Source: a virus. From it: 64,000 nucleotides of DNA. This document shows positions 10,633 to 42,833 of this stretch, one piece after another. Within the stretch, counting starts at the first letter, position 1. Every line of letters begins with the position of its first letter. Below the pieces are notes generated by a model. The model worked only from the letters and a program-made list of their open reading frames with translations. It was not told the origin of the DNA and searched no databases. The stretch lies in the IMG/VR virus record IMGVR_UViG_3300044692_000034, positions 32,001 to 96,000 of that record, one strand, 5' to 3'. A program made the position numbers and the translations under genes.

Positions 10633-11003
10633 GCTTCCTCTCCTGTGATCTGCCGCCACCATGCGACAGCTTGAACCCGGTTTCTGACCCCAATGCGCGG
10701 ATAGATCTGCGCAAGGTGATACTTCACTGCCTGCTCTGTCGTCGACAACCGCGCCGCTATCTCAGAGTTCGTGAACCCTTCGGCGAGCAGTGTCACGACC
10801 TCTGCTTCGGTGCGCGAGAGCCCGTGACTAACGTCACGGCGCGTCCCCTCGTCCGGCGTGAACTCGTACGCCTCCCGGTTGTAGACGACCGTCTCAACCG
10901 TCTGCGAGCCGCACTGATGGCAATACGGTGTCTCGCGCTGCAACCTGCAAGCCCGGCACACACGGATTTTGACGCCCTTTGGCCATAGCGGTACGCCGCT
11001 CAT
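10629..11003 (-). CDS. zinc-ribbon plus LuxR-type HTH transcriptional regulator
   Basis: CRAC...CHQC, then LSRTEAEVVTLLAEGFTNSEIAARL...VKYHLAQIY..IGVRNRVQAV. Confidence 0.85.
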   Translation of the reverse strand: MSGVPLWPKGVKIRVCRACRLQRETPYCHQCGSQTVETVVYNREAYEFTPDEGTRRDVSHGLSRTEAEVVTLLAEGFTNSEIAARLSTTEQAVKYHLAQIYPRIGVRNRVQAVAWWRQITGEEA

Positions 11004-12652
11004 CGGCCCACCACCGCAACCATCGGCACCTTCGGCTCGACCATTAGGTCGGCGCCGCCGACGCAGTTGGCCATACCAAGCGCCGTCAGGCCGTCAATGA
11101 CGCGCACCTCTTGCAAGGCCGCCGAACGGCTCGTCGCCGGCCGGTCGAACCTGTACTTGTCTCCCGGCAGCTTCCGTGCTATCGCATTCATGATGTGCGA
11201 GCGGAGAGCACCATGAATCTCCTCCCTCTCTCCTGTCGTTCCGTCAACGACGATGTCGGGAACGCGGCACCAGCGAAGCCACCTCTCCACCACATCGCTG
11301 TCAGGTGCCGCGCCGCCACGCAACGCCTGCATGAACGCGTCGTAGTCCTGCTGCGCGTTCGCGTTCCCTTGAGACCGATCAACGACGTCGCAGCCGATCT
11401 CTTCCTCAAGCCAAAGCATCGTGTCTTCGGCTTTGGTGGTGTCCATCACGACCATCTTGATGGGGTTGCGTGCGTGGATCGCCAAGAAGGCGTCACGCAC
11501 GTGCACAGGGCTGAGCGTTGTGCCATCGCGCGGCGGCTCAAGGATCCATGCCTGCCCGATGAGACGCAGCTTGCGGTGCGGGATCCACAGCGGCACGAGC
11601 GCCGTCGTGTCGAGGCTCCATGCGAAGTCGGCACCGACGATGATGGGCACACCCTTCGGCAGGATGCCTTCGGGGGCTTCTTCGAGTTGCCCCGCCTCCA
11701 GCACGGCGTCATCCCAGTCGGCTTCGTTGACGGCTGCGCTACTCGACCGCGCCGGGATGTTGCACGTGAGCCGCAGCCACCCCTCGCCGTAATCGAGCGT
11801 CGGGCTCGCGCGCTTGCGCCGTAGGCTCTCCTCCGTGATCTTGGCGAGCGGGTTCGCCTGCTTCACGATGGAGATGTCTTCGACGAGTCGGCGGTCTGGG
11901 ACGGCGTACTCGTGCAGGACGCTCGTGTCCGTCTCGTAGCGGCCGAAACACACGCCGCGCTTGGTGCTCTTCGTCGCGTGCTGCCGCAGCGAGTCGCGTG
12001 ACTTCTCAAAGTCGCTGCCCGGCTCACCGGACGTCGAGATCATGACGATGCTCGCGCCGCGCTTCTCACACTTGCCCTTCCACAGCCGATACAGGCCAAG
12101 GTCGCGGTGCCGGTGCCCCTCGTCGATGACCGGCAGTGTGGGGATGACGCCGTCTGCTGTGTCCTTGTCGGCGGCGTACACCTTGAGGCCCTGCCCGCCG
12201 TTGAACCGGTGCTTGATGAGCCGTGTGCCCTTGATCTCGTACGGGCCGTCGCACGAGCCGCGCTCACCTGGCAGAGCGTTCTCATCGGGTACGGTCGGGC
12301 CGTCCTTCATGTACAGCAGGCCCGGTGTGCGCTCAATGAACCCCTTCGCCTGTGTGAACAGGATCTCCGCCTGGTCGCGAGACGCGGCGCCGATAGGCAC
12401 CCACGGCTCGTTCGTGACCTCCAGGTGGTAGAGACAGATCTCCGCGATGAACGTTGTCTTGGAGTTGCCCTCCGGGACGATCAGCCAGCACTCTTCGTAG
12501 CCGTGAAGGACGTCTGCCATGAAGTCGAGCTGCCACCGCTCCGGCGGATGCCTCTTCCCGTCCTCGAAGACCAGCTCAGACGCCCAGCGCTTGAAGTGCG
12601 CGAGCGTGCCGGGCTGGCCCTGGACCTGCCCTGGCCACTCATGCCACGCCAT
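11000..12652 (-). CDS. terL: phage terminase large subunit
   Basis: ERWQ Q-motif, Walker A-like VPEGNSKTT, AASRDQA, Walker B VIDEGH, ISTSG coupling motif, KQANP, nuclease VGADFAWSLDTTAL and IDGLTAL. Confidence 0.9.
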   Translation of the reverse strand: MAWHEWPGQVQGQPGTLAHFKRWASELVFEDGKRHPPERWQLDFMADVLHGYEECWLIVPEGNSKTTFIAEICLYHLEVTNEPWVPIGAASRDQAEILFTQAKGFIERTPGLLYMKDGPTVPDENALPGERGSCDGPYEIKGTRLIKHRFNGGQGLKVYAADKDTADGVIPTLPVIDEGHRHRDLGLYRLWKGKCEKRGASIVMISTSGEPGSDFEKSRDSLRQHATKSTKRGVCFGRYETDTSVLHEYAVPDRRLVEDISIVKQANPLAKITEESLRRKRASPTLDYGEGWLRLTCNIPARSSSAAVNEADWDDAVLEAGQLEEAPEGILPKGVPIIVGADFAWSLDTTALVPLWIPHRKLRLIGQAWILEPPRDGTTLSPVHVRDAFLAIHARNPIKMVVMDTTKAEDTMLWLEEEIGCDVVDRSQGNANAQQDYDAFMQALRGGAAPDSDVVERWLRWCRVPDIVVDGTTGEREEIHGALRSHIMNAIARKLPGDKYRFDRPATSRSAALQEVRVIDGLTALGMANCVGGADLMVEPKVPMVAVVGR

Positions 12653-30037: not shown

Positions 30038-31792
30038 CTACGAGTTCACGAGGACGAACTCGGCCATGACGCCGGGCGCCGAGGCGTCGAGCCCGACCAT
30101 GTCGAGCGAGTGCGGGTCCCGGGGGCCGCAGATGGACGACCGACCGGCGGTCATCGAGTGAACGATGAGCTTGGCGTTGATGCCCATCTGCTTGCGGTAC
30201 TGGTTCAGCGCCTCGGACGGGTGGATGACGCCGCTCCACGTCTCATTGTCCGTGTACACGACGAACGCGTCGTACTCGCGGCGCTGCTCCAGCGCCCATA
30301 GCATCGGCAGTGCGCAGTCGGTGCCACCGAAGTTGAGGTCGTTGACGGAGGAGCAGACGTCGGTGATCCGCTGGCGCGGGCTCACGTTGAGCTGCGTTAG
30401 GACGGCAGCCGGCGCTGTCCTGTCAGCGTTCGCGATCAGGCCACGCCCGGCCGTGCCGTCGCTGAACGCGACGACGTCGTAGGGGTTGTCGAGCATGAGT
30501 GGCAGACTCATCGCGACGCTTGCCTCTCGTGCCGTGGTGTTCGGCAGGCCGGTGCACATGTTGCGGTTCATTGACTGCGAGACGTCGTACGCGATCAGCA
30601 ACCGCCCCATGGAGACGACGTTGTCGAACGCGAGGTAGTACGCCTCGTCAAGCGCGTCGATGACTCGTGACACCGGGGTCCACGTGCCGGTGCCCTGCTC
30701 GCTGCGCCCGTGCGCGTACGTCCGCGCCGCGACGAACAGCTTCATTGGGTGCACGAGCGAGCGACGGATGTGCTCCGGATTCGAGAGCTGCTGCACGACG
30801 AGGTCGGTCGCGGAGGAGACGCCGGTGAGCAGCGTCTTGCCGTTCTTGTCCGGGCGACTCATGCGCGGCAGGTTCCGGATAAGCGCGGTCATAGGCATGC
30901 CGGCCTTGAGCAGCGCGAACCACACATCGGACGTCATGTGCTCGGCTGGGATCGCCTCGTGCGGCACCGCCCGGCCGTATGCCGCGATCGTCGCGCACAC
31001 ATCCTGCGGGCTCGTCGCCTTCACCAGCTCCTCGTACGCCACGACCGGCCCGATGAACGCCGCGTACCGCTCGGGGTCGTGGTCGTTCAGGATGTCGTTG
31101 TACTCCGCCTTCTCGCGATGCGTCGCCCAGTCGATGAGCGTGCGGTGCTGCCAGCTCGCCATCGCCGTGCCCTGCTCATGCAGGGGCAGGCCCCCGAGGT
31201 AGCCTCCCTCGACGGCGTACGGGTGCGCCTGCCGCATGACGTCACGGTGCGTCCACCCGTACCGCTGCCGGTACTTGACCATCTGGTACGCGACGTCTTC
31301 GGCCGACTTGTTCAGGTACCAGCGGGTGATGGCCTTGCGGAACCCGCGTCCCCAGCCGCGCATGTCCTCGCAGAAGGACAGGAACATGAACAGGGTGCTC
31401 GCGGTGCGGCACACGACGGGGATCGCAGCGAGGCCGGCCTCGCGGACGTCCTGGCGCTCGTGCGAGCAGAGCACGGCGAGCGCGTAGATGCCCGGGTCCT
31501 GCTTCGGGGCGCGGCCCGCCACGCTCACGTTCACGACCTCGGCAACGGTGCGGACGGCGTCCTTCTCGATGCACCGCAGCAGCGCGTCGACGTTGTCGAG
31601 CGTGAGCTTGTCCTGCCCGGCGTAGTACGTGCCGCCTTCGCTGCCGATGACGAGCCACCGGCGCAGACGCGCCCAATCGCCCGCCTGCCATACGTACCCG
31701 CCCGCCGGATTCTTGACCTGGCCCGAACCCGGAAGCGGCCGCGACTGCGGCGTCTTCACCGCACGTCTGGTGCCTCTCTTCAGGTAGCTCAT
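30038..31792 (-). CDS. rsr: Ro60/TROVE domain RNA-binding protein (Rsr-like)
   Basis: QVKNPAGGYVW, RLRRWLVIGSEGGTYY, GWGRGFRK, YQMVKYRQRYGWTHRD, vWA MIDAS DVSQSM, GGTDCALPM, YTDNETW; start MSYLK with GGAGAGGAG SD. Confidence 0.95.
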   Translation of the reverse strand: MSYLKRGTRRAVKTPQSRPLPGSGQVKNPAGGYVWQAGDWARLRRWLVIGSEGGTYYAGQDKLTLDNVDALLRCIEKDAVRTVAEVVNVSVAGRAPKQDPGIYALAVLCSHERQDVREAGLAAIPVVCRTASTLFMFLSFCEDMRGWGRGFRKAITRWYLNKSAEDVAYQMVKYRQRYGWTHRDVMRQAHPYAVEGGYLGGLPLHEQGTAMASWQHRTLIDWATHREKAEYNDILNDHDPERYAAFIGPVVAYEELVKATSPQDVCATIAAYGRAVPHEAIPAEHMTSDVWFALLKAGMPMTALIRNLPRMSRPDKNGKTLLTGVSSATDLVVQQLSNPEHIRRSLVHPMKLFVAARTYAHGRSEQGTGTWTPVSRVIDALDEAYYLAFDNVVSMGRLLIAYDVSQSMNRNMCTGLPNTTAREASVAMSLPLMLDNPYDVVAFSDGTAGRGLIANADRTAPAAVLTQLNVSPRQRITDVCSSVNDLNFGGTDCALPMLWALEQRREYDAFVVYTDNETWSGVIHPSEALNQYRKQMGINAKLIVHSMTAGRSSICGPRDPHSLDMVGLDASAPGVMAEFVLVNS

Positions 31793-31824
31793 CAGGTCAC
31801 AACTCCTCTCCGGTGAAGTTAGGG

Positions 31825-31955
31825 CGTCGCACGGGCATGTTGCGTGAACCTTGTCCGCCGGCAACGCTCACGCGTCCCGACCTTAGATACCGCTCTATGA
31901 GCGACGTATCAGGGTTTCAACCTGAGATAACAGACTCACAGCGGCCCGTACGACG
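31825..31955 (-). ncRNA. Y RNA-like ncRNA no. 3 (~131 nt, no tRNA module)
   Basis: Terminal stem CGTCGTACGGGC/GCCCGTGCGACG (U-G wobble on minus); shared GGGCCG..., GTTATCT and ACATGCCCG motifs. Confidence 0.75.
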
Positions 31956-31961
31956 TAGAGC

Positions 31962-31989
31962 AGAGTACACCATGCCAGCGACCCCGCAA
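31962..31989 (-). promoter_or_regulatory. promoter TTGCGG-N16-TACTCT for Y RNA no. 3 and rsr
   Basis: Predicted +1 falls on about 31955, the first base of the Y RNA stem. Confidence 0.65.
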
Positions 31990-32012
31990 CCAACAAACAG
32001 TCGCAGAAACGA

Positions 32013-32168
32013 CCGAGGGCCGTGCGGGCATGTGACGTAGACGAGGGATCTTCGCTGGTGCTCTGCCTCTTGAGCTACCCGGTCCTTATGAGACGCGAGG
32101 CAGGATTCGAACCTGCAACCCCCAGCCTTGCCGGAGAACTCATCCACTTCGGCCCGCACGACCCTCGG
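32013..32168 (-). ncRNA. yrlA: YrlA-type Y RNA (tRNA mimic, ~156 nt)
   Basis: 17-bp terminal stem, GGGCCGA/CATGCCC Ro-binding helix; permuted tRNA module with T arm GCAGG-TTCGAAT-CCTGC, closed acceptor-like hairpin, D arm TAGCTCAAGAGGCAGAGC and GCTGG/CCAGC stem. Confidence 0.88.
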
Positions 32169-32191
32169 CTCGTGTGGCGCAGAGAGACGAA

Positions 32192-32267
32192 CGTATGCGG
32201 CGGGCATGTGATTCGCCAAGGGGTGTCGTAGGAAGATAACCCTCGGCTGTCGGCCCGCCGCGCTACG
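32192..32267 (-). ncRNA. minimal Y RNA-like ncRNA no. 1 (~76 nt)
   Basis: GCGGCGGGC/GCCCGCCGC stem; GGGCCGA, GGTTATCT and ACATGCCCG motifs shared with the other two. Confidence 0.75.
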
Positions 32268-32284
32268 CAGCGTACACCACTAGC

Positions 32285-33271
32285 TCAGCCAACACCATAC
32301 GTCATGAAGAAATGGCCGGGATAGTAATCGACGGTGCCGTAATCGATCGGGGGTGAGCCGTGCCCGATCGTCTTGCCACCGCCGACGTATATCTCCACAT
32401 GGCCGCCGTCCGCCGAGAACATTAGATCTCCCGGCTGCGGGTGCGTCGCGAGCGTGCCCTTCGATATCTGATCGAGCGTGTCGGTCCCGGGGTCTGGCGC
32501 GCCCGCCGCAAGGTAGATGGCCCTCGCCCACTGTGAACAATCTGTGCGGTCCGGTGCCGGCGGCATCGGGTTGTCAGTGAGCGCGCCTTCTTCGCTGTAC
32601 CGGTTGTATCCCGTCTTCGTTGAGAGCGTCGCTTCGGCTGCGCTGATGATCTTGGCGCGGACGCCGGCGAGGTCGCCTACGGCTGCGGCTGCGCCACGGT
32701 ACAGCGCAGCTTTCTCTTCGACTTCACTGACGTACCATTCGGCGTTGTTGTACGCAAGGATCGCCCGGTGGTAGTCCTGCGGCGCGCCGTTCGCCACGAG
32801 CATCCTGGCTGTGGCAGGCACCGCGTCTTTCGGATCGTAGACGTCGCCGCCCTGCCCGTACGCGTCCCACGTACTCGGCGGCCCGTTCTTGATGTTGAAC
32901 TGGCCGGGACCGGCGCAGCATCCGTACGCGTTGACGCCCGAGTGCACACCCGGTGCCGTACTCCGCCCATGGTCTGTTTCGATGCTGTAGATGCCGGCGA
33001 TGATCGCCCAGTCGATGTGGTACTCGTCACCTGCCTGCCTGTACAGCGTCAGCATGTCCGGTGGGATGTCAGCTACTGCGACGGTGCTCGGCGCGTACCC
33101 AACCTGACCACCGCCAAGGCCACCGACGAGCATGCCAGCAACGGCCATCAGGAAGACGTAGACCGTGGCGCAGAGCACGAACCCGGCGAGCAGAGCCTTG
33201 CTAACGAGGCTCGTGTCATCCCAGCGTTGCCGTGCCGCCCGAGCAGCGACGGTGACTTCCATGGACGCCAT
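32285..33271 (-). CDS. conjugative cell-wall hydrolase: lytic transglycosylase + NlpC/P60 (CwlT/VirB1-like)
   Basis: N-terminal TM; IDWAIIAGIYSIETDHG, GPGQF, AILAYN; TDCSQW, PQPGDLMF, HVEIYVGGG. Confidence 0.9.
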   Translation of the reverse strand: MASMEVTVAARAARQRWDDTSLVSKALLAGFVLCATVYVFLMAVAGMLVGGLGGGQVGYAPSTVAVADIPPDMLTLYRQAGDEYHIDWAIIAGIYSIETDHGRSTAPGVHSGVNAYGCCAGPGQFNIKNGPPSTWDAYGQGGDVYDPKDAVPATARMLVANGAPQDYHRAILAYNNAEWYVSEVEEKAALYRGAAAAVGDLAGVRAKIISAAEATLSTKTGYNRYSEEGALTDNPMPPAPDRTDCSQWARAIYLAAGAPDPGTDTLDQISKGTLATHPQPGDLMFSADGGHVEIYVGGGKTIGHGSPPIDYGTVDYYPGHFFMTYGVG

Positions 33272-33780
33272 CAGCTAAGCCCCGTGACCATCCAGCGGCC
33301 GTGCTTCTCCAAGGTGAGCTTCACAACGTAGTGGCGGTCGTGAGAGTCGAGTACCCATGCGCTCGTCGCCGCTTCGTTCTGCGTGATGTTCTTCACCTGC
33401 ACGAGCAACACCTTTGCCGTCGTTCTCCCCATGCTCGCGGGGGCTCGCGGCGGGTCAGCGAGCAACTGAGCCTTGAACTCAGGCGCGGCGTCGTTTAGGT
33501 CGCCTGGCGCGTTGCCGTACGAGAACGGCAGGTATTCCTTCAAGAACTGGCGCGTTGTATGGCGCGCTCCGGTGGAGTCCGGGTGCACAGGCAAGCCAGA
33601 CAACGTACCCGGAACCGGTGTCCTGACTGGGTCTGGCGGCTTCTCCGGGGCCGGCGTACGTGTCGGCTTCGGGGGCTGCGTCGGGTGCTGCCCGACAGGG
33701 TTCTGCGCGAGGTACCAAGCGAGCAGAGCAACGGCTACCGAGCAGAGCGCGACAGCCGCCGCTTTAGCTCTCGTCGACAT
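33271..33780 (-). CDS. membrane-anchored conjugation-associated protein
   Basis: Signal/TM, Pro-rich linker and NTF2-like pattern (FLKEYLPFSY...YVVKLTLEKHGRWMVTGL). Confidence 0.65.
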   Translation of the reverse strand: MSTRAKAAAVALCSVAVALLAWYLAQNPVGQHPTQPPKPTRTPAPEKPPDPVRTPVPGTLSGLPVHPDSTGARHTTRQFLKEYLPFSYGNAPGDLNDAAPEFKAQLLADPPRAPASMGRTTAKVLLVQVKNITQNEAATSAWVLDSHDRHYVVKLTLEKHGRWMVTGLS

Positions 33781-35854
33781 TCTCATCCTCTTCGACGTCC
33801 GTGTCGTCGTCTAGGCGGTCGTCTTGCTCCGTGTGCGTGCTCTCGACAAGCACACGCTTCTTTCTCTTGCTGCGACGCAACCTCCCTACTGCCTCGTCGT
33901 GAAGCTCGCGCGGGGTGCGACCCTCCTTCTGCGCGCCGCCCTCTCTCGTGTCGGCAGGTGTCGGGTCGTCTGGTGCCGTCCCGTCCGTAGCGGTAGCGGA
34001 CCCGCCTTGCGGCACACCCCTCTTGTTCGGATCGTGCTCCGTGCCGACGAGAGCCCACGCCACCCGGTGATTGCCCTTCTCGCCGTTCCCGCCCCCGTCG
34101 TTCAGGGCGGCTAGTTCTTCTTCGGTTGCGTACCGGTACTCGCGCTGACCGCGCTTGCCGCCGGCTCGCTTCCCGCGCCGCACACCGCCCGCTGTGTTAC
34201 GCCCCGGCTTGCTTGCGTCGCCCGGCTCCTCCGGCCAGCGCGGATCGGTGGTCCGCGTCGTCGAGCCACTGTCGAGGACGGCGTCGTCGTCCTCTGTGAT
34301 GTCGTCGTTGTTGCGCTTGCCGGCGTTAGGACCAGCGTCTGTCCCGTTGCCGCGCTGCGTACGGGAGCTGCGGAGCATGGACCGCACCGGGCGCATGGCT
34401 GCGTACATACCTGCGGCCGTGATAGCTGCGCTGCCCGTGCCGAGCCCGGCTGAGCGCCCGTGCGCGGCCTTGGCCAGCTCGTTGACGATGAGCTTGCGTT
34501 TGAGGTACACCGTCCAGAAAAACAACGTCTGGATGATGAACGCGACCTCGAAGCCGGCCCACTGTGTGGAGACGAGCAGAGCGGCGCTGACCCCCATGAG
34601 CACCGCTATGACGATCGCGTAAAAGATCTTGATGAATAGTGCGGTGGCGAGCCGCGTCGCCCACCATTTGACGAGGTCGATGCCGCGCGGGAAGATGCCG
34701 GCGACGAGCACTATGGGAGCGAGCCCGAAGAGCGCGAGCGCGACCACCTGCGCGATTATCACGGTCACAGAGAGACGGCCGAACAGGAGCATGAGAGCGA
34801 TCGCTCCCAGCCCAACAAGGAAGACGACCCTGACTCGTGAGAGCGCGCCGCCGGCTTGCTGGATGTCTACGGCTGCGCTGTCGTTCTTGTCGATCTTGCG
34901 TCCACGGAACTGCGCCGCGTACTTCGGGTCGTCTGGGACCTCTCCGCGTCTGAGTGCGTCGTACTCCTCGTCTCGTGCGTCCGTGCCGGGCGCTTGCCTC
35001 AGGAAGAACTTGGCGTAGCCGCCGTACCCGTTTGTGTCCTGCGTCGTGCTGCTGCGGCACACGTCAGCGAACGGGTTGCCTGGCGCCACCGACAGTGGGT
35101 AGCTGTCGTCTTGCGGCGAGGGTAGGTGCGTGTCGACGCAGTGCTCAAGGCCGCCGAACTCCAGGACGACCCACGGCTTGTAGATCATGATGTCGAACAC
35201 GTGGTCCGTGATGGACGTGCTCGGGTCGTCCCCCTTCTTGCCCACCGCACCGAATCCGTTCAGGAAGCTCGTGCTCACACCGTTAGCGAACTTGACCGCA
35301 CCACCGATGATGTATGTGGGGTTTGAGATGATGACGATGCACGCGACAGTGCATGCCAGCGACAGCGCGAACGCTGCGAAGACCTCGCCGGCTCTGCGTT
35401 GCACGAGCGCTCGCCACATGCCCCACACGCCCGCGCAGATGACCGCGAAGTACAGCCACCCTTGTGCGACGACCTGGCCCTCAAACTGTTGGACAGCTGC
35501 GGCGATAGCAGGCAACGCGCCATGCGGCCCCGTGATCAGCTGGAGATTGAACGCCCACGTGAAGACCTCGATGATCAGATTGAGGCCGTTGCAGATGAGG
35601 TCCCAGCCTTGCTGCGCGAACGATTGCCGCAGCTCCGGCACGATGCCGCCCGGGTTCGTGACACCGAAGTCGACGTGGTAGTCGAGGCCGTAGTTGCTGA
35701 GCGGGTACCTTGCCGCGAGCCCTTGCAGCCCTTGCGTCGGCCCGATGTTGACAAACGGGTCGCTGCCGAGGTATTCGGCGAATGCGCTCGCCGGCCCGAG
35801 TAGGTAGATCCCGAGCAGCCACGCTGCGACCTTGCCGGCTCTGCGTTTGATCAC
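33764..35854 (-). CDS. VirB6-like polytopic conjugation membrane protein (ConG/TcpH/Orf15-like)
   Basis: About 8 TM segments, YKPWVVLEFG motif, long hydrophilic C-tail; GTGA overlap with the VirB4 stop. Confidence 0.8.
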   Translation of the reverse strand: MIKRRAGKVAAWLLGIYLLGPASAFAEYLGSDPFVNIGPTQGLQGLAARYPLSNYGLDYHVDFGVTNPGGIVPELRQSFAQQGWDLICNGLNLIIEVFTWAFNLQLITGPHGALPAIAAAVQQFEGQVVAQGWLYFAVICAGVWGMWRALVQRRAGEVFAAFALSLACTVACIVIISNPTYIIGGAVKFANGVSTSFLNGFGAVGKKGDDPSTSITDHVFDIMIYKPWVVLEFGGLEHCVDTHLPSPQDDSYPLSVAPGNPFADVCRSSTTQDTNGYGGYAKFFLRQAPGTDARDEEYDALRRGEVPDDPKYAAQFRGRKIDKNDSAAVDIQQAGGALSRVRVVFLVGLGAIALMLLFGRLSVTVIIAQVVALALFGLAPIVLVAGIFPRGIDLVKWWATRLATALFIKIFYAIVIAVLMGVSAALLVSTQWAGFEVAFIIQTLFFWTVYLKRKLIVNELAKAAHGRSAGLGTGSAAITAAGMYAAMRPVRSMLRSSRTQRGNGTDAGPNAGKRNNDDITEDDDAVLDSGSTTRTTDPRWPEEPGDASKPGRNTAGGVRRGKRAGGKRGQREYRYATEEELAALNDGGGNGEKGNHRVAWALVGTEHDPNKRGVPQGGSATATDGTAPDDPTPADTREGGAQKEGRTPRELHDEAVGRLRRSKRKKRVLVESTHTEQDDRLDDDTDVEEDENVDES

Positions 35855-38298
35855 GTCGCCATCTGCCTTGCGCGTTCGGCGGGGTTGGTGTTGAGCTGCC
35901 GCAGGAGGCGCGGGCTGGAGACGTCGATCTGAGCGCGAACCACGTGCCCCCAGATGTCCTTCACGAAGCACTTGCCTTCTCGTGCTTCGACGATCATTTG
36001 CGCCAGCTCGTCGTTGTCGGGGTCGAGGTTGAGTAGCGCGAGCGCGTCGCGTGCCTCCTCCAGCGTCTCCATCCCGAAGATGTAGAACGTGCCGATGAGT
36101 TTGACGATCTCACCCGGGTCGGCGATGTGCTGCGACGCGATGAGAGACGTAGCGAACTTCGCGCGGCCTTGCCTGACAATGTCCCAGATGAGCCGGCGGC
36201 CACTCGGCGTGGCAAGCAGGAAGTGAGCCTCGTCGAGCAGCAGCGTCTTGTGGATCGTGCGGTCATTGTTGATGAGCCGCATGGCGAAGTATGCGATGAG
36301 CCTGAGGGTCGCAACGCTCAGCCGTTCGATCTCGTCGTAGTCGGCGCGACTGACCATGCTGTCCGGGAGCACGAGCGCGCTCGGCCGGATCACCGTGACC
36401 TGCGCACGGTCAATGAACTGGCGTTCGCCGTTGGAGAACGCGAGCCGGGCGAGCCCTGCCGCTGCGCGTGTGCCGAGCGCATCGCCGGCGGCGTTGGCGT
36501 CCTCTCCTGCCGACGTCCTCATGAGCAGGTCGATAACGGCTTGCGCACATGGCTTCTCCATCTCGGCGACGACCTGCGCTGCCTTACGCACCTGCGTACC
36601 CCACGTCGACGGCACGTTCGTCGGTAGCAGCTCCATGAAATACGAATAGGCGCCGTCAACGACCTGCGACCTCGGCAGGACCAGAAATGGATCGAGGAGC
36701 CCAGCGTACATCACCGGGTCGTCCAGATCTACGACTTCCACACGGCCCTTGAGTTCGTCAACCTCCTCCAAGTGGTGGTCGGGCTTCGGGTCGACGTCAA
36801 CGATCTGGCCGCCGGAGAGCGCGTCCCCCACCGCCATCAGCTCCGCCGCCGTGGTCTTACCAGACCCCTGCGTACCGGCGAGCAAGTACGCGCTCGCGCG
36901 GTTCTCCTCGGGGGCGCGGCGCAGGTCGTTGAACAGTGGCCGCTCGTGCCCGTGTTTCGGGCTACGTCGGTCGACGTACCCGATGTACGTGCCGCTCCGC
37001 GAGCCGAGATCGTGCGTGGCAATAGGCATGAGCGTCGCGAATTGCAGCGGCGTGAGCCAATCGCGGTAGTGCGTGACTCGGCCGCCGTCGACGCGTGGCA
37101 GGTGGTCGTAGAACGCCCGCTTTTGCGTCCCGACGGGCAGCCACAACTTCACGGTGCCGAACAAAGCCCGCAGCTCCGAGATCTTCGCTTTGACCTCGTT
37201 TGTGGTCTTGCACCCGCCGATAGCGAACGACACGCTCGTGCGGAGCAGCGGCGGTTGGTCACTGCGCCGGAGCCGCATGTCAAGCCGGCGAGCCTGCCGC
37301 GCGTCGTCCTCGGACGCCCATGACTTCGCGCCGGCTGCGCTCTCGTCCTCATCGCTGAGAACGTTGTCGGCATCGCGGACCTTGCGCTGCACCCTCGAGA
37401 TGGCCTGAGAGTTCGCCTCCCACTCCACATGCATGACCATGTCAACCGGGAAGCTCGCACGCTCCAACGGCGTGAACAAGAACTCCGACTCGCCGGGGAA
37501 GATCGTCTCGTCGGGGAGCGCACCGAGGTACAGGATCGCTTGCCACAGGACGCCCTCTTCGGTGCGTGCCTGGAGGAACCCCTCGGCGTTGCGGATCGGC
37601 TCGTTCCCGAGCGAGAGCATGTCCGTCCCGAGCGGCACGTAGGCGTCATGCCCGTCGTCGGTTTCGACGACCAGGGCGTTCGGCTCCCAGTAATCGTCGA
37701 GTGGTGGCTCGCCGTGCCCGCGATACGCGGCCCGCCGGAAAAGCCATTGCAGCTCTCGGGTGGTGGCACGCCGCGCCGGCAGCCGGTCCGTCACCGTGGC
37801 GTGCATTTCTTCTTCGGCCTCGATAAGACCGTTGATCTCGGCCTTGCTGATCGGGCGGAGCTTGCCGACACCAAGCGCGTCCTCGGCCGTCGCCCGGACG
37901 CGTTCCATGTCGCGGCCGAGCGCCACACCGAACCCGTCGGTTGCTTCGGTCACGATCCTCGGGATGAGGTAGAACTCAGGGAAGTACGCCTTGCGGCCGT
38001 TGATCTTGTCCTTGTGCTGCTCGACGAACTGGCGGAGCAGCTTCTCAGTCTTGTACCGGTTGTCGAGGTTCCGTAGTGCCTGCTGGACGTACGCCTCGAC
38101 CTCGTACTCGCGGTTGACGCGGTACAAGGAGTAGTCGGCCTTGACGTCGTGCGTGAACAACTGGAGCCGCGACGCCCACGAACCCTTGTCGCGAAGGTAC
38201 GGGTAGCTGATCGGGTTGACGCGGTAGATAGCGCCGCGCTCAGCGCCGCGACCGACAAGGATGTTGCCGTGCGCGTATCGCAACGGGAACTTGTTCAC
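35851..38298 (-). CDS. VirB4-like conjugation ATPase (ConE/TcpF/Orf16-like)
   Basis: 815 aa; Walker A AGTQGSGKT, VDVDPK, LLDPF, Walker B LLLDEAHFL, RQGRAKF...ASQ, GKCFVKDIWGHV. Confidence 0.92.
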   Translation of the reverse strand: MNKFPLRYAHGNILVGRGAERGAIYRVNPISYPYLRDKGSWASRLQLFTHDVKADYSLYRVNREYEVEAYVQQALRNLDNRYKTEKLLRQFVEQHKDKINGRKAYFPEFYLIPRIVTEATDGFGVALGRDMERVRATAEDALGVGKLRPISKAEINGLIEAEEEMHATVTDRLPARRATTRELQWLFRRAAYRGHGEPPLDDYWEPNALVVETDDGHDAYVPLGTDMLSLGNEPIRNAEGFLQARTEEGVLWQAILYLGALPDETIFPGESEFLFTPLERASFPVDMVMHVEWEANSQAISRVQRKVRDADNVLSDEDESAAGAKSWASEDDARQARRLDMRLRRSDQPPLLRTSVSFAIGGCKTTNEVKAKISELRALFGTVKLWLPVGTQKRAFYDHLPRVDGGRVTHYRDWLTPLQFATLMPIATHDLGSRSGTYIGYVDRRSPKHGHERPLFNDLRRAPEENRASAYLLAGTQGSGKTTAAELMAVGDALSGGQIVDVDPKPDHHLEEVDELKGRVEVVDLDDPVMYAGLLDPFLVLPRSQVVDGAYSYFMELLPTNVPSTWGTQVRKAAQVVAEMEKPCAQAVIDLLMRTSAGEDANAAGDALGTRAAAGLARLAFSNGERQFIDRAQVTVIRPSALVLPDSMVSRADYDEIERLSVATLRLIAYFAMRLINNDRTIHKTLLLDEAHFLLATPSGRRLIWDIVRQGRAKFATSLIASQHIADPGEIVKLIGTFYIFGMETLEEARDALALLNLDPDNDELAQMIVEAREGKCFVKDIWGHVVRAQIDVSSPRLLRQLNTNPAERARQMAT

Positions 38299-38855
38299 GC
38301 ATACACCTCCAGCCGCTCACCGTCTTTGACGTCAACTTCTTGTAGCTCGCCGGCTGCGTCTGCTCGCAGCGTCACACGAGTGTTCTTCATTGCGACCCTG
38401 ACGGGGGCGTTGGTCCTGACCTTGGCGGGGCCGTGTACTCGGCCACGGCGCAGCTCAGCACCCGAGATGTCCCACCGCACCGGCAAATCCTCCTGCCACT
38501 CCTCCCACGTCTCTTCCTCCTCGGGATTGTCGCGTAGGGCCTGGACGGTGCGCGCCCAGAGGTAGATGTGGATGGACCGGCCGTCGGGCGCTTCCTGGCG
38601 TGCCGCAAACGCCACGATGACAGCCAACGACCCGTATCTGAACCACCCGGGCATGAGCCCCATGACGAGCCCCGTACCCGGCGTGTGCGACAGCAGGTAC
38701 ACCACGAGAACCGTTCCGAACACCCAGGCTGCGGTCTGCGCCGGGATGCCGCCGGGGACCATCTTTGTGAGGTCGAAGTCCCATACGCGCCGGATGCGCC
38801 AATCGGTCCTGAAGACGCGTCTGTACGAGACGACGCGTATGCGCCGTTGCTTCAC
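38295..38855 (-). CDS. TcpE/ConD-like (VirB3-like) conjugal transfer membrane protein
   Basis: VSYRRVFRTDWRIRRV, two TMs, PDGRS motif; directly upstream of VirB4. Confidence 0.78.
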   Translation of the reverse strand: MKQRRIRVVSYRRVFRTDWRIRRVWDFDLTKMVPGGIPAQTAAWVFGTVLVVYLLSHTPGTGLVMGLMPGWFRYGSLAVIVAFAARQEAPDGRSIHIYLWARTVQALRDNPEEEETWEEWQEDLPVRWDISGAELRRGRVHGPAKVRTNAPVRVAMKNTRVTLRADAAGELQEVDVKDGERLEVYA

Positions 38856-39193
38856 GAGGTGCCGGCGATCTTGTGCCCGATCGCGGTGACCATGTTGACG
38901 ATGCTGCCGCCGTCGAACACGAACATGCCCGTGATGATCACGGCCGCGATGTAGCTGATGATGATCCCGAGCTTGCGTGCGCCGGGAAACAGGAACGCGA
39001 GTGCACCTGCGGCGACTGCCGCCTTCCACGGGGTCTTGACGTTGTCGAGGACCCAGTTGCCGGCGTTCTCACCGTAGTTCGCGTTGTCGGTTGGGTCGGC
39101 GAGCACGATGGCGGGACCGAGCGCTGCGACCATTGCCATCGCCATGAGCAGCAAGAACACGCGCCGCCCCATACGAGTCACTTGCTGCATCAC
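38852..39193 (-). CDS. small pilin/VirB2-like (TcpD/ConC-like) membrane protein
   Basis: Signal-like segment plus two TMs, 113 aa, canonical operon position. Confidence 0.65.
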   Translation of the reverse strand: MMQQVTRMGRRVFLLLMAMAMVAALGPAIVLADPTDNANYGENAGNWVLDNVKTPWKAAVAAGALAFLFPGARKLGIIISYIAAVIITGMFVFDGGSIVNMVTAIGHKIAGTS

Positions 39194-40050
39194 TTATCTC
39201 CTTCGTTCACTTTGGCTACGTACCAGCGGTCGCCCTTGACCAGCACGAGCCGATACCCGAGCGAGTACGACGCATCGTCCTCTTTTGCTGTCACCGTCGC
39301 GTACACCTGCCGCTCTCGTCCCTTCGCCGGCGCGAGCAGCCCGACACTGTTCACCTGGACGAGCTTCATCACGACAGGGCTCGCGCCGAGCTGCGCACCC
39401 GGGAGCGCCGGGCCGGCAGAGACGGCGTCTGCGTCGCCGGCAAGGTACGCCGTGAAGAACCTGTTGACGACGTCGAGTATGTCGCTCGACTCGTCGGGGC
39501 TGAGCTGGTCGAGGTCGTCGTTGTTGGGGGTGGCAACGAGCGGCGCGCTTGTCAGGCTCGGCAGCGCGTACACGACCAGCCCGTGGTTCTTGTCCGTCTC
39601 TACGGGCACGCCGAGGTATCTCGTCACAGCACGCCCGTTAGCCTGCATGGTCACAGCGACTGTGATGAGTGCGCGCTGCGACCCGGTCGTCGTCTCGTCA
39701 GACACGGCCGTGGCTTGCACGACCTGCGCCGGGGCCTTCTCGCCCCAGGTGGGGACCACGCGAGCACCAAGATTCGTCGAGACGAACGACTCAAGGTCCT
39801 GCTCGTAGAACCCGGGGTGCTTCGGATTGTACGAGAAGTACGTTCGCGCGAAGTCCATGGCGTACGCGCGAGCTGCATCGTCAGGCCACTGCGAACGCTG
39901 TTCTACGACCTTCGTTGGTCCTGCCGGCTTCGTCGGCGTTGTCGCAATAGCCGTGAGCCCCCGGAGCGCGATGATCACCAGGACGAAAGCGACCAGTCCT
40001 CGGCCTGCCTTCTTGGCGTACCCCTTGAGCTTCGTGCGCGTTGCCGCCAT
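39190..40050 (-). CDS. TcpC/ConB-like (VirB8-like) conjugal transfer protein
   Basis: N-terminal TM; AMDFARTYFSYN, RYLGVPV, VNRFFTAY, YRLVLVKGDRWYVAKV (two NTF2-like repeats). Confidence 0.85.
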   Translation of the reverse strand: MAATRTKLKGYAKKAGRGLVAFVLVIIALRGLTAIATTPTKPAGPTKVVEQRSQWPDDAARAYAMDFARTYFSYNPKHPGFYEQDLESFVSTNLGARVVPTWGEKAPAQVVQATAVSDETTTGSQRALITVAVTMQANGRAVTRYLGVPVETDKNHGLVVYALPSLTSAPLVATPNNDDLDQLSPDESSDILDVVNRFFTAYLAGDADAVSAGPALPGAQLGASPVVMKLVQVNSVGLLAPAKGRERQVYATVTAKEDDASYSLGYRLVLVKGDRWYVAKVNEGDK

Positions 40051-40156
40051 CCAATCCTCTCCGTGTTGGTGGCCGCTACATGATGCGGCGTTCGTTCGGT
40101 GAGGTGATGGTAGCCGGTCTGTCTAAGCCGCGACCATCATGAAACGGTGCGCATGC

Positions 40157-40420
40157 TTACATCGGCGGGATGGGTGGGCTGCTAGGCGGCCCAAGCGACT
40201 GTGACGCTTGCCACTGCCGCGCACGTTCCTCTGAGACGACACCGTGCCCCTTGCAGAAGTGACACATGATCGTATAGCGGCGGCCGGTGCCCGGCTCCTC
40301 CCTGCGCTCCACACCACCCTCACAGCATGGGCGCGGGCACTTGACGGACCCGCTCCCCAGCAATGCCGCCAAGTACCCGCCGGGCACGATACCGACGTTC
40401 TCGCTCATGCCCATCGCCAT
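40157..40420 (-). CDS. small DnaJ-type zinc-finger protein
   Basis: CPRPCCEGG...CHFCKGHG. Confidence 0.55.
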   Translation of the reverse strand: MAMGMSENVGIVPGGYLAALLGSGSVKCPRPCCEGGVERREEPGTGRRYTIMCHFCKGHGVVSEERARQWQASQSLGPPSSPPIPPM

Positions 40421-40439
40421 GCTGTGACCTACCTCTCGG

Positions 40440-41036
40440 CTAGCAGCCGACCCAGGCGCCGGCCCCTTGTTCCTTGTAGATGCGTGCCGCGCACGCGTCC
40501 TGGTCTCCTGGCACGTTCACGTCCAAGCCTTGGCAGACGCCGCCGGGCGAGTAGTGCGACCTGAGCGTCTGCCACCGGCCCGTTGCCCCCGACGAAGGAT
40601 TGGTGTTCGCCGGCCCCGTCGAGTAGTTGCCGTGAGACTCGTCCGCGCACGCCGGCAAGTTGGCGGCCACCCCGGACGAGACAACGCCGCTCGGTGCCTG
40701 CGGCGCGCCCATGGTGCGTGTGAGCAGCGGCGGCCCCGGCCACGGCACGCGCGCGCGCAACGCGCGGAGCTGCCGCAACGACTGCGCGATCTCGCCGCAG
40801 TGCGATGGCCTGATCTTGTGCGCACCGCTGTGGTAGCGATACCTGACCCCGAGGCGCCGGATGTTCCTGCCCGGTGCCCTGCGCCCGAACTTGTGACGTA
40901 CGGCGTAGTACTGCGCCGAGTAGTCCACGAGGAGTTTCCTCTCTCCGCAGACGGTGTGGCTCTGTTGCGTCGCCGCTTGCGCTGACCCTGTATGGAGCGC
41001 AGCGGTCGCAACGAGGACCGCTGTTAGCAGCCTCAT
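40440..41036 (-). CDS. secreted Rpf/SceD-like transglycosylase
   Basis: Signal peptide; CADESHGNY, GATGRWQ, DQDACAARIY..QGAGAW..C. Confidence 0.8.
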   Translation of the reverse strand: MRLLTAVLVATAALHTGSAQAATQQSHTVCGERKLLVDYSAQYYAVRHKFGRRAPGRNIRRLGVRYRYHSGAHKIRPSHCGEIAQSLRQLRALRARVPWPGPPLLTRTMGAPQAPSGVVSSGVAANLPACADESHGNYSTGPANTNPSSGATGRWQTLRSHYSPGGVCQGLDVNVPGDQDACAARIYKEQGAGAWVGC

Positions 41037-41110
41037 TCACCGACCTCCTTCGTTGGAAGCGGCGGACGCTAGCAGCCCTTATCTGTGCATGTCCATCAGC
41101 CATATGGCCA

Positions 41111-42127
41111 CTAGAAGAGCTGGTCCACAGAGGGGTACACGGTCAGCGGGGTTTGAGGCCAGCCGCGCATTGCTGTCGGTTGCTCCCTGACTTGTAGCCG
41201 CTCAGGGAAGTCGGGCAGCATGTCGGCCTTGCCAGGAAGGCCGTGCGCTCGCGCCCACCGCGTCCCCATCTGCTTCACGTGGACGGCGGTCGGCTTCTGT
41301 TCTTCGATGTCGAAGATGGGTTGGATCGGGTTGTGGGCTCGCCACACGAGGTCCCACATCCAATTTTCGTCGACGGGGCGTGCTTTTGGGCCGCTCTCTC
41401 CACCGATGATGATCTCGTCGATGTCGCGCAACGACAAGCCGCCATCGGTCTCGTCATGACCATCGTGCCAGTAGTGCCGCTCGCGCATGTCACCGGGGTC
41501 GCCGGTCTGCATGTCGCGCGGGTACGGATCATAGCTCGTGGTGTACATGGGGAGTAGCGGCCCGAGCAGCGGCTCAGCGCTGATAAACCGCACTGCCGTG
41601 TTCGTGTCGCGAAGCAGGTCGGCGCGCGACACGAACGCACGGTTCTCGATCGTAACGCCATGCCAGATGTGCGCTGGTGTCGGAAGGCCACCGCCGGAGA
41701 TGCTGTCGGCTGCTGCGTGGTGTCCTTGCGACGTGAGCAGAATGCGCAGGTTGGCCCAGAACGCCGTGTTGTTGAGCAGATTCCTCATTCGCTCAGGGCG
41801 TTTGGTCAGGACGCGGTAGATGTGCTGTGGTGCGGCCATCATCGTCGCGTACACCTGCAAGATGAACCCGACCTGGATGTCGTCGTGGAACAGGTCGCTG
41901 AGCGAATTGACGAAGATCATGCGCGGCGACGTCCATCGGATGGGGACTTCAAGTCTGTTCGGATGAAGCGTGATCGGTATCTCGCCGCGCTCGAACCGCA
42001 TGCCGCGCTCACGGAACGGCATCGTGTCGGCGATGTAGCAGTGAGCGCATCCGGGGCTGATCTTCCGACAGCCCCACGTCGGGTTCCAAGTGTCTGTCGC
42101 CCATGAAATAGCCGTGCGACCAGGCAC
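41111..42127 (-). CDS. phage Gp37/Gp68 family (DUF5131) protein
   Basis: ISWATDTWNPTWGCRKISPGCAHCY, FVNSLSDLFH, LTKRPER, FISAEPLLG, IGGESG, VKQMG. Confidence 0.92.
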   Translation of the reverse strand: MPGRTAISWATDTWNPTWGCRKISPGCAHCYIADTMPFRERGMRFERGEIPITLHPNRLEVPIRWTSPRMIFVNSLSDLFHDDIQVGFILQVYATMMAAPQHIYRVLTKRPERMRNLLNNTAFWANLRILLTSQGHHAAADSISGGGLPTPAHIWHGVTIENRAFVSRADLLRDTNTAVRFISAEPLLGPLLPMYTTSYDPYPRDMQTGDPGDMRERHYWHDGHDETDGGLSLRDIDEIIIGGESGPKARPVDENWMWDLVWRAHNPIQPIFDIEEQKPTAVHVKQMGTRWARAHGLPGKADMLPDFPERLQVREQPTAMRGWPQTPLTVYPSVDQLF

Positions 42128-42332
42128 TACTTCACCATCTCCCTCATCGTTCTGACGTACACCTCGGCGTGCCCGAGCATGTCATCAAACGATGCGACGA
42201 GCCGGGCGCGTATCGCCGCGAGCATCCGCGCCCCGTGACATGCGCTGACCATGCCAGCGCAATCCTCCCCTGCACGCGCGTTGCAGTCAGGGCAAGAGAC
42301 TTCGGCGATCGCCTCGTACACGGTTGGTGCTT

Positions 42333-42833
42333 TCATTCTGGCCACCCCAGGTAGTTCGGGCACTTGTCAGGCCCGTGCTCTGAGAGTTTGCCACCGTGAC
42401 CGCATCGCAGGCACGTGCGCACCACATGCCCTTCGTAAACGGCGTTGCCTTCGACCCACTCTACGTCCCACCACAGCGGTGTGTCAGCCGTGAGCCCGAT
42501 CTTCAGGAGCCTGCGCGCCTCAACCCGGCCTGCTTCCTTCAAGCGGTACTGAGCCCTGCCCCTGTGCCCGTACGTAGACCACGCGTAGCCGCGCCGCACG
42601 AGTGCCGTACACGCGCCCCCGAGCACAAACCCCGGCTGCTGCCACCCCGAGTACGAGTGCCCTCCCTTCGCGCCGCTGCCGTTCCTGCGTACCCCGTGCC
42701 CGAGCTTCGCGCGGTACGCGAGGTCGCTCGCGAGAGCGGGGCCGTGCCCTGACACCATTTCAAGGTCGTACAGCGCGAGTAGCAGGCGCTGCCCCGTCGG
42801 TGTTAGTGGCGTATCCCGACCCGTGCCCGCCAT
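42333..42833 (-). CDS. winged-helix-like protein with zinc ribbon
   Basis: LTPTGQRLLLAL...ASDLA...YRLKEAGR; CLRC. Confidence 0.5.
   Translation of the reverse strand: MAGTGRDTPLTPTGQRLLLALYDLEMVSGHGPALASDLAYRAKLGHGVRRNGSGAKGGHSYSGWQQPGFVLGGACTALVRRGYAWSTYGHRGRAQYRLKEAGRVEARRLLKIGLTADTPLWWDVEWVEGNAVYEGHVVRTCLRCGHGGKLSEHGPDKCPNYLGWPE

Follow-up and report, generated by a model that had tools for sequence, protein, structure and literature searches.

The window analyzed here is a 64,000-nucleotide stretch of viral DNA, positions 32001 to 96000 of one 141,737-bp metagenomic contig (C1) that forms IMG/VR virus record IMGVR_UViG_3300044692_000034. Between window positions 32285 and 40050 lie seven genes on the minus strand which encode, in order, TcpC, a pilin-like protein with two transmembrane (TM) segments, TcpE, the ATPase VirB4, a VirB6-like protein, a protein with an NTF2-like domain, and a cell wall hydrolase (Table 1). 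An initial annotation had read these genes as a Gram-positive conjugation operon of the type IV secretion system (T4SS) class inside a phage-like genome. We found all seven genes at the positions and in the order that it described, on the minus strand. The gene families it named also stood, but the start codons of TcpE and of the VirB6-like gene had to be moved. After these two revisions, 4-nucleotide GTGA or ATGA overlaps join the genes at most junctions, as the earlier report of overlapping start and stop codons had it. Of the channel-side components of mating-pair-formation (MPF) types FA and FATA, VirB4/TcpF, TcpC/VirB8, a VirB6-like protein, and a CwlT/TcpG-like hydrolase were recovered, and TcpE scored just under its family cut-off. 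Judged by protein family and gene order, the operon is confirmed as a Gram-positive Tcp/Con-type (MPF-FA/FATA) T4SS channel module, and the resemblance first drawn to the modules of ICEBs1, Tn916, and pCW3 holds on both counts.

Table 1. Features of the T4SS operon, its surroundings, and the phage contig that carries it (window coordinates unless prefixed C1)
Feature	Size (aa)	Position	Strand	Evidence
TcpC/VirB8-like	286	39190..40050	minus	PF12642, 5.5e-19, 69 bits; six-frame match 69.9 bits
Pilin-like/TcpD-like	113	38852..39193	minus	PF04956 TrbC/VirB2, weak, 18.6 bits, below cut-off
TcpE/VirB3-like membrane protein (start revised)	186	38295..38855	minus	PF12648, 27-28.2 bits vs 29.9 cut-off
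VirB4/TcpF-type ATPase	815	35851..38298	minus	AAA_10 PF12846, 1.7e-46, 159 bits; NCBIfam TcpF 9.3e-50
VirB6-like (start revised to GTG overlapping VirB4 stop)	696	33764..35854	minus	NCBIfam CD3337/EF1877, 6.9e-29, 100.9 bits
Putative second VirB8-like subunit	171	33271..33786	minus	N-terminal TM, Pro-rich linker, NTF2-like domain
Cell wall hydrolase, CwlT/TcpG-like	328	32285..33271	minus	PF00877 NlpC/P60; SLT-type N-terminal half
g87, Cys-rich, zinc-ribbon-like	87	40157..40420	minus	Between Rpf-like gene and TcpC
Rpf-like transglycosylase-domain protein, secreted	198	40440..41036	minus	Signal-peptide-like N terminus; PF06737, 21 bits
DUF5131 (Gp37/Gp68), upstream flank		41111..42127	minus	PF07505, 3.7e-61
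Ro60 (TROVE + vWA), downstream flank		30038..31864	minus	PF05731, PF25045; Y-RNA-like elements precede
TerL		11000..12652	minus	phrog_9, 4e-38, residues 22-508 (nearly full length); PF03354, 27.6 bits
Portal		outside window	minus	PF04860, 124 bits
Virion genes		outside window	minus	S78 prohead protease, HK97-fold capsid, head-tail adaptor, major tail protein, large tail proteins
Tape measure	2057	outside window	minus	M23 domain inside
FtsK/SpoIIIE-domain protein	472	C1:140224-141642, outside window		PF01580, 37-38 bits; one N-terminal TM

Scanning species-representative genomes with a profile gave 80 loci of integrative and conjugative elements (ICEs) with related T4SS genes, nearly all from Thermoleophilia (Solirubrobacterales, Gaiellales, Conexibacter, Patulibacter, and others), and we read the phage genes against these. 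In VirB4, the Walker A (GTQGSGKT, residues 475 to 482) and Walker B (D689 E690) motifs, first noted as intact, fall in invariant alignment columns. TcpC has a single N-terminal TM segment at residues 18 to 36. A gene for a protein of ~100 amino acids (aa) stands at the pilin-like position in 58 of the 80 loci. The TcpE gene sits where it is expected and overlaps both of its neighbors by 4 nucleotides, and its homologues in the ICE loci carry PF12648. The VirB6-like protein scored under the curated NCBIfam cut-off of 120 bits. It has at least three strong TM segments, its homologues give weak TrbL matches, and a VirB6-like gene directly follows VirB4 in 66 of the 80 loci.

The 171-aa protein had been listed simply as a membrane protein. 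One TM segment does stand, but the protein is better described by an NTF2-like, VirB8-type fold. Its AlphaFold model (pLDDT 83) drew Foldseek matches that were largely NTF2-like folds, among them 3ub1 (an NTF2-like conjugation protein) and 4o3v (VirB8-like), at weak E values of 5e-3 to 2e-2. Because of the TM segment, the NTF2-like model, and these two matches, we propose that the protein is a second VirB8-like subunit. In 14 ICE loci, a member of its family likewise separates VirB6 from the hydrolase. The hydrolase itself has a TM anchor at residues 31 to 49. Its SLT-type half was identified via homologues that carry SLT_2 or SLT together with NLPC_P60, and residues E98 (SLT) and D244-C245-S246 (NlpC/P60) are invariant in the alignment.

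Contig C1 is a genuine tailed phage of ~142 kb. Virion structural genes, which the initial annotation had asked to see elsewhere on the replicon, are present: TerL, portal, prohead protease, HK97-fold capsid, and tail genes with a tape measure, the set that places the phage among HK97-fold Caudoviricetes. TerL lies 19.6 kb from the operon on the same strand, as had been estimated. The contig is classed as linear in IMG/VR, has a CheckV completeness of 96%, shows no terminal repeats, and carries three tRNA genes at a uniform GC content of 65.0%. A GC3-guided gene call (GC3, GC content at third codon positions) over the whole contig gave 204 open reading frames (ORFs), nearly all on the minus strand. 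The phage also encodes a class II ribonucleotide reductase, Ku, RecT, a PD-(D/E)XK nuclease, an SNF2 helicase, Ro60, RlaP, NADAR, DUF932, DUF5131, DUF1643, Cpn10, MazG, and DNA methylases, a gene content typical of large phages. In the direction of transcription, the T4SS genes are preceded by the virion genes and followed by TerL, and the T4SS is therefore inside the phage genome and not beside it. Phage-type genes flank the operon as first described, with DUF5131, DUF932, and Ro60 each recognized by Pfam.

The phage has a lysis cassette of its own at C1:106740-108100 (L003:14740-16100), in which a gene for a 183-aa, 2-TM holin-like protein is followed by one for a 276-aa protein with CHAP and peptidoglycan-binding-like parts. 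The latter parts were read by eye, from the CHAP-like motifs WCQCF ... DHVGV ... EGN and a peptidoglycan-binding-like region; neither gene had a Pfam match at E<=1e-3, and PDB sequence searches with them were uninformative. Given this separate cassette, the T4SS hydrolase would not be required as the endolysin.

A search with VirB4 turned up a protein of 79% identity on Logan contigs of other sequencing runs. One of these contigs (L008, 8.2 kb) carries DUF5131, Rpf-like, g87, TcpC, pilin-like, TcpE, VirB4, and VirB6-like genes in that order, at 57 to 84% aa identity. Another, from a third run (L105), carries the hydrolase (80% identical), a gap of ~450 bp, and then Ro60 (70%). The relatives' contigs, three short fragments set against the one near-complete genome (C1), came from runs SRR29078251, SRR29078107, and SRR29078250. 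Both operon junctions are thus present in a separately assembled and diverged relative, which argues that C1 is not a chimeric assembly. GC content and GC3 are also continuous across the operon edges.

Across the two lineages, the ratio of nonsynonymous to synonymous substitution rates (dN/dS) was 0.16 to 0.23 for every T4SS gene at a dS of ~1, with similar values for the flanking phage genes; a dS this near to saturation makes the ratios approximate. Compared with their L008 orthologues, TcpC was 72% identical (dN/dS 0.17), the pilin-like protein 69 to 71% (0.22), and VirB4 79% (0.16), and TcpE also gave a dN/dS of 0.22. As read from these substitution patterns, the T4SS genes are under purifying selection. 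The operon, co-oriented with the phage genes as noted at the outset, has a GC content of 64.8%, close to that of the contig, while the median for the closest bacterial (ICE) VirB4 genes is 73.4%. L008 has a GC content of 61.6% overall and 62% in its VirB4 gene. No flanking direct repeat of >=14 nucleotides resembling an att site was found around the operon, a PF00589 search gave no tyrosine integrase, and bulk Pfam scans of nearly all ORFs gave no recombinase family, in agreement with the first description of the operon edges. On junctions, composition, and flanking sequence, we conclude that the module is neither a chimera nor a recently inserted ICE. The T4SS channel is, by the same lines of sequence evidence, a fixed, ameliorated, and selected module of a phage lineage in which no lysogeny genes were recognized, and we regard it as a new variant.

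The closest homologues of the phage VirB4 are chromosomal, at 35 to 48% identity, and their gene order is the same as that of the phage operon. In a quick maximum-likelihood tree, the phage VirB4 and its L008 orthologue formed a 100%-supported pair on a stem of 1.34 substitutions per site that arises among the ICE sequences; the pair deviates in aa composition, and the tool warns of long-branch effects. When all phage ORFs were compared with the 80 ICE loci by tblastn, only the operon genes gave matches. Beyond these genes, 46 of the 80 ICE loci hold a protein of 880 aa, probably a coupling ATPase resembling type IV coupling proteins (T4CPs), which has Walker A/B motifs and two TM segments near its N terminus, and 25 hold a Replic_Relax relaxase. 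Genes for DNA methylases and for an ArsR-type regulator are conserved as well. Relatives of the phage portal, at 40 to 44% identity, occurred in 2 of 401 sampled Thermoleophilia genomes and on two IMG/VR contigs, and no linked VirB4 was found beside the portal in any of these four. The T4SS homology and the portal relatives in Thermoleophilia suggest, indirectly, that the host is probably a soil actinobacterium of the Solirubrobacterales/Thermoleophilia. Taken together, the loci define an uncharacterized T4SS/ICE family with a wide distribution in Solirubrobacterales, whose genes could be tested in cultivable Solirubrobacter, Conexibacter, and Patulibacter.

Outside this clade, VirB4 identity fell to ~25% among PLSDB plasmids. 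The initial annotation had suggested that IMG/VR might hold related genomes with both TerL and VirB4. Such relatives did not turn up: searches with either single protein returned no close relatives, and a VirB4 profile returned only AAA_10 ORFs of ~420 aa, at 22 to 26% identity, on three contigs of 175 to 198 kb with no TcpC above the family cut-off. When JGI metagenomes were scanned with the VirB4 pair of the phage clade, nothing matched. INPHARED held no TerL match and VirB4 matches at 24 to 26% in three records only.

A six-frame search of the phage gave no match at E<=1 to the relaxase families PF13814 (Replic_Relax), PF03432 (MOBP-type Relaxase), PF08751 (TrwC), and PF02486 (Rep_trans) or to VirD4 (PF02534), and a hidden Markov model of the 880-aa T4CP-like ICE family gave no phage match at E<=10. 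Bulk Pfam scans of 139 ORFs and 50 single scans (E<=1e-3) showed no ParA/ParB and no plasmid Rep within the limits of Pfam sensitivity. The methylases and the ArsR-type regulator of the ICEs had no counterparts in the phage by tblastn against the 80 loci. Thus, by sequence search, the phage holds the channel half of a mating machine without recognizable DNA-processing genes.

A candidate motor is the FtsK/SpoIIIE-domain protein encoded near the end of the contig. It belongs to phrog_1358 (8e-38), and its best NCBIfam match is the TraB protein of Streptomyces plasmids (5e-13, 48 bits against a cut-off of 800). Complex prediction of TcpC with this protein scored 0.19 against a mark of 0.32 and gave no evidence either way. 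In Tcp systems, the T4CP is the FtsK-like TcpA, as in pCW3, and a double-stranded DNA (dsDNA) substrate has been proposed; their relaxases belong to an atypical family, MOBM (TcpM), that is related to tyrosine recombinases and not to classical relaxases (PMC12857230). TraB of Streptomyces moves dsDNA without a relaxase and without a T4SS channel, and some T4SSs work with subsets of the core subunits or without a VirD4-type T4CP (PMC12857230). From these analogies, a dsDNA route fed by an FtsK/TraB-like motor is mechanistically conceivable for the phage.

Of the readings considered, we believe that these sequence data best support a mating-pair channel domesticated by the phage, which was already one of two options in the initial annotation and which fits the data. 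Long ago, a tailed-phage lineage would have taken only the mating-pair-formation half of the Tcp/Con T4SS of a host ICE and kept it as a phage module. In infected cells, the products would assemble an envelope-spanning channel, with VirB4 as the motor, VirB6 and VirB3 as the membrane pore, two VirB8-like subunits spanning the wall, and the small pilin-like protein. The anchored SLT+NlpC/P60 hydrolase, perhaps with the Rpf-like enzyme encoded upstream, would open the peptidoglycan. The channel would then mediate contact-dependent export to neighboring cells. Its likeliest substrate would be DNA in the form of the phage genome or of a replication intermediate, fed in by the phage FtsK/TraB-like ATPase (by analogy with the FtsK-like TcpA of pCW3) or by a resident ICE through its coupling and relaxase proteins. 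The conservation of the T4SS genes argues that the phage uses the channel in infected cells, and on that basis we consider a functional, selected channel for contact-dependent export the probable case, with appreciable room for doubt.

Several points weigh against this reading. Only two lineages, known from one full genome and three short fragments, underlie the conservation, dS is near saturation, and the host assignment is indirect. With no relaxase or VirD4 found, DNA transfer through the channel is a proposal only. The FtsK-like gene is the sole related ATPase in the phage and lies 68 kb from the operon, its PHROG family is annotated as FtsK/SpoIIIE-like morons, and in a PDB sequence search FtsK was its only relative, closer than any T4CP. 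We hold the more specific idea of two transmission routes, in which the dsDNA genome would also pass from infected or carrier cells to touching neighbors through the Tcp channel by way of an FtsK/TraB-like motor and without a relaxase, to be unlikely and more doubtful than the channel itself.

The other option of the initial annotation went further, to an autonomous conjugative phage or phage-plasmid that would form virions and also conjugate by itself, with an unrecognized relaxase and oriT, an FtsK/TraB-like motor, and a plasmid or carrier state. The full set of channel genes under selection and the encoded FtsK/TraB-like membrane ATPase are in its favor, as are the FtsK-like T4CP and atypical MOBM relaxase of Tcp systems (PMC12857230) and the relaxase-free action of TraB-type motors. 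However, the six-frame search and the bulk Pfam scans, over nearly all ORFs, found no relaxase, VirD4, integrase, ParA/ParB, or plasmid Rep; the cognate T4CP-like protein and Replic_Relax relaxase were left behind in the ICEs; and with no repressor or maintenance module recognized, a stable donor state is unsupported. The two-route claim in this form is not supported by the data and stays a hypothesis, which we regard as unlikely.

A similarly unlikely reading, which we place next, is that the channel is not conjugative and benefits the phage indirectly, through export of a protein effector, mobilization of resident ICEs or of integrative and mobilizable elements, blocking or exclusion of their transfer, or release or uptake of DNA. 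An operon without DNA-processing genes would suit such a role, some known T4SSs work with subsets of the core subunits and some lack a VirD4-type T4CP (PMC12857230), and homologous ICE T4SSs, whose own T4CP and relaxase could act in trans, are common in hosts of this clade. However, we noticed neither a candidate effector nor a toxin-immunity pair adjoining the operon, the 35 to 48% VirB4 identity makes cross talk with ICE components uncertain, and the role is without precedent in phages.

We consider it very unlikely that the operon is passive cargo, a nonfunctional and decaying ICE fragment that was recently inserted or recombined into the phage. In favor of this, the phage has only some of the ICE genes, and phages with whole inserted ICEs do exist, such as Streptococcus phage IPP61, which holds a complete Tn916-type element. 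However, all seven ORFs are intact and tightly coupled, the low dN/dS extends over two lineages, composition is fully ameliorated in both, and the stem branch is long. The operon is oriented as the phage genes are, unlike the element in IPP61, and neither integrase, excisionase, relaxase, nor att-like repeat was found. C1 is metagenomic, but an assembly chimera in which phage DNA was joined to a contig of an ICE or plasmid is hardly credible, with the same junctions in independent assemblies from three other runs, continuous GC and GC3 at the edges, and phage genes on both sides.

The nearest known systems to the domesticated channel are the uncharacterized T4SSs of Thermoleophilia ICEs (Solirubrobacter deserti NZ_JAPCID010000003, Conexibacter, Patulibacter, and Paraconexibacter). 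They share the gene order, including the NTF2 gene at some loci, and identities reach 45% for the VirB6-like protein and 62% for the SLT domain. The T4CP-like ATPase, Replic_Relax relaxase, DNA methylases, and ArsR-type regulator belong to the ICEs alone, their genes have a GC content of ~73% against 65% in the phage, and the phage copies form a long separate branch. With the Tcp system of pCW3 and the Con systems of ICEBs1 and Tn916, the phage shares the families TcpC (PF12642), TcpE (PF12648, with a score just under the cut-off), TcpF-type VirB4, CD3337/EF1877 VirB6, and CwlT/TcpG hydrolase. An FtsK-family protein, the family of the pCW3 motor TcpA, is also present in the phage genome. However, the phage VirB4 is only ~25% identical to plasmid homologues, no TcpA/VirD4 gene stands beside the operon, no relaxase was found, and the backbone is that of a tailed phage instead of a plasmid or ICE.

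Prophages with inserted ICEs, phage-ICE tandems, and the "conjugative prophage" Phi1207.3 are known (Sci Adv 2026, PMC13651849). IPP61, the one we inspected of the three INPHARED records with a VirB4 match, is a prophage plus Tn916 and, like C1, has virion and T4SS genes on one contiguous element. Its ICE is a complete and separable Tn916 on the opposite strand that brings along an integrase, an excisionase, and a tet(M)-like gene, whereas C1 has channel genes only, co-oriented, ameliorated, at a locus fixed in the lineage, and with no recombinase or att sites found. C1 and phage-plasmids (the P1, N15, and SSU5 groups) both blur the boundary between phages and plasmids or conjugative elements, but C1 has T4SS channel genes and, in Pfam scans, no recognizable plasmid maintenance genes. 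The replication and partition genes of a phage-plasmid, the recombinase and att repeats of an ICE, and a relaxase are all among the features that our searches of C1 did not recover. Streptomyces conjugation offers a further parallel through the TraB match of the phage membrane ATPase. That match is far below its cut-off, TraB needs no T4SS channel, and no clt-like 8-mer cluster lies near the phage gene.

The combination of a phage with the channel half of a T4SS is not reported according to recent reviews, and a 2025 review of T4SSs does not mention phages (PMC12857230). Phages and conjugative elements are usually treated as two separate engines of horizontal transfer. Here, the T4SS channel appears to be a stable and selected part of a phage genome, as opposed to an ICE that landed in a prophage. 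If phage DNA moves through the channel, then spread of this virus would not be strictly dependent on receptors and virions; a dual route would circumvent receptor-based resistance and would make this phage the first with a demonstrated conjugation-like transfer system of its own. If the channel has another role, a virus would be putting T4SS parts to a new use, with neither a coupling protein nor a relaxase dedicated to it.

Immediately upstream of the operon, the Rpf-like protein is possibly an accessory muralytic enzyme. Its PF06737 score rises to 22.8 bits in the L008 orthologue (84% identity, dN/dS 0.15), with both copies below the cut-off of 27. A 224-aa ORF at 40429-41103 is in the wrong frame, and the ORF in Table 1 was preferred instead. 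The g87 protein is 67% identical in L008 (dN/dS 0.26) and had no family match in Pfam or NCBIfam. The DUF5131 junction is kept in L008, with DUF5131 itself 57% identical. On the other side, Y-RNA-like elements lie in the gap between the hydrolase and Ro60 (window 31865-32284), where the Rfam YrlA family gave a partial match on the minus strand at 32056-32124 (31 bits, E 0.0018, below the gathering score).

Among the ICE loci and their relatives, the 880-aa family (e.g., L028:16289-18931, and 45 other ICE loci within L021-L100) had no Pfam or PDB sequence match and is unannotated. Two short contigs, L106 (JGI 3300068058) and L107 (SRR30224763), have a GC content of 58 to 60% and carry VirB4, a VirB6-like protein, and an SLT+NlpC/P60 hydrolase at 52 to 58% identity, with no NTF2 gene. 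The 16-kb contig L012 (JGI 3300012092, Ga0136621_1000455) consists of a T4SS module (IS605 OrfB-like, TcpC, TcpE, VirB4, TrbL-like) followed by its perfect mirror image and is probably a palindromic assembly artifact. L036 and L037 (CAZMVL010000042/73) are VirB4 loci of Thermoleophilia type in a metagenome-assembled genome labeled Paraperlucidibaca (Pseudomonadota); since L036 pairs with a Patulibacter locus in the tree, they are most likely a binning contaminant.

Elsewhere in the phage genome, TerL lies 52 to 88 kb from the portal (G000:C1:131121-132854), however the genome is closed, which is unusual for an HK97-type siphovirus, and no terminase was recognized adjoining the portal. A Ku homologue is encoded at window 47890-48819, and no integrase, partition, or repressor module was recognized on the contig. 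Some mycobacteriophages use Ku for genome circularization after injection, a likeness that this phage may share.

A sigma-70-type promoter scan of window 31800-42400 gave no match. A leaderless promoter-like motif (TTG[AC]NN, 16 to 18 nucleotides, TA[GC]NNT, 5 to 9 nucleotides, then ATG or GTG) had 16 minus-strand matches, 15 of them in C1:0-36 kb and the other at 77 kb, and none on the plus strand. Unlike this leaderless left 36 kb, the T4SS operon consists of overlapping genes led by Shine-Dalgarno sequences. In a search for clt- or oriT-like repeats, the only hits were five-copy 8-mer clusters in the hairpin-rich, terminator-like region C1:238-641, with none near the operon or the FtsK-like gene. 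Within that region, at C1:546-641 near the left end of the contig and at the 3' end of the minus-strand array, a GC-rich hairpin (GAGCGGCCCG-loop-CGGGCCGCTC) occurs in two copies 57 nucleotides apart, perhaps as terminators, perhaps as a terminal or packaging signal.

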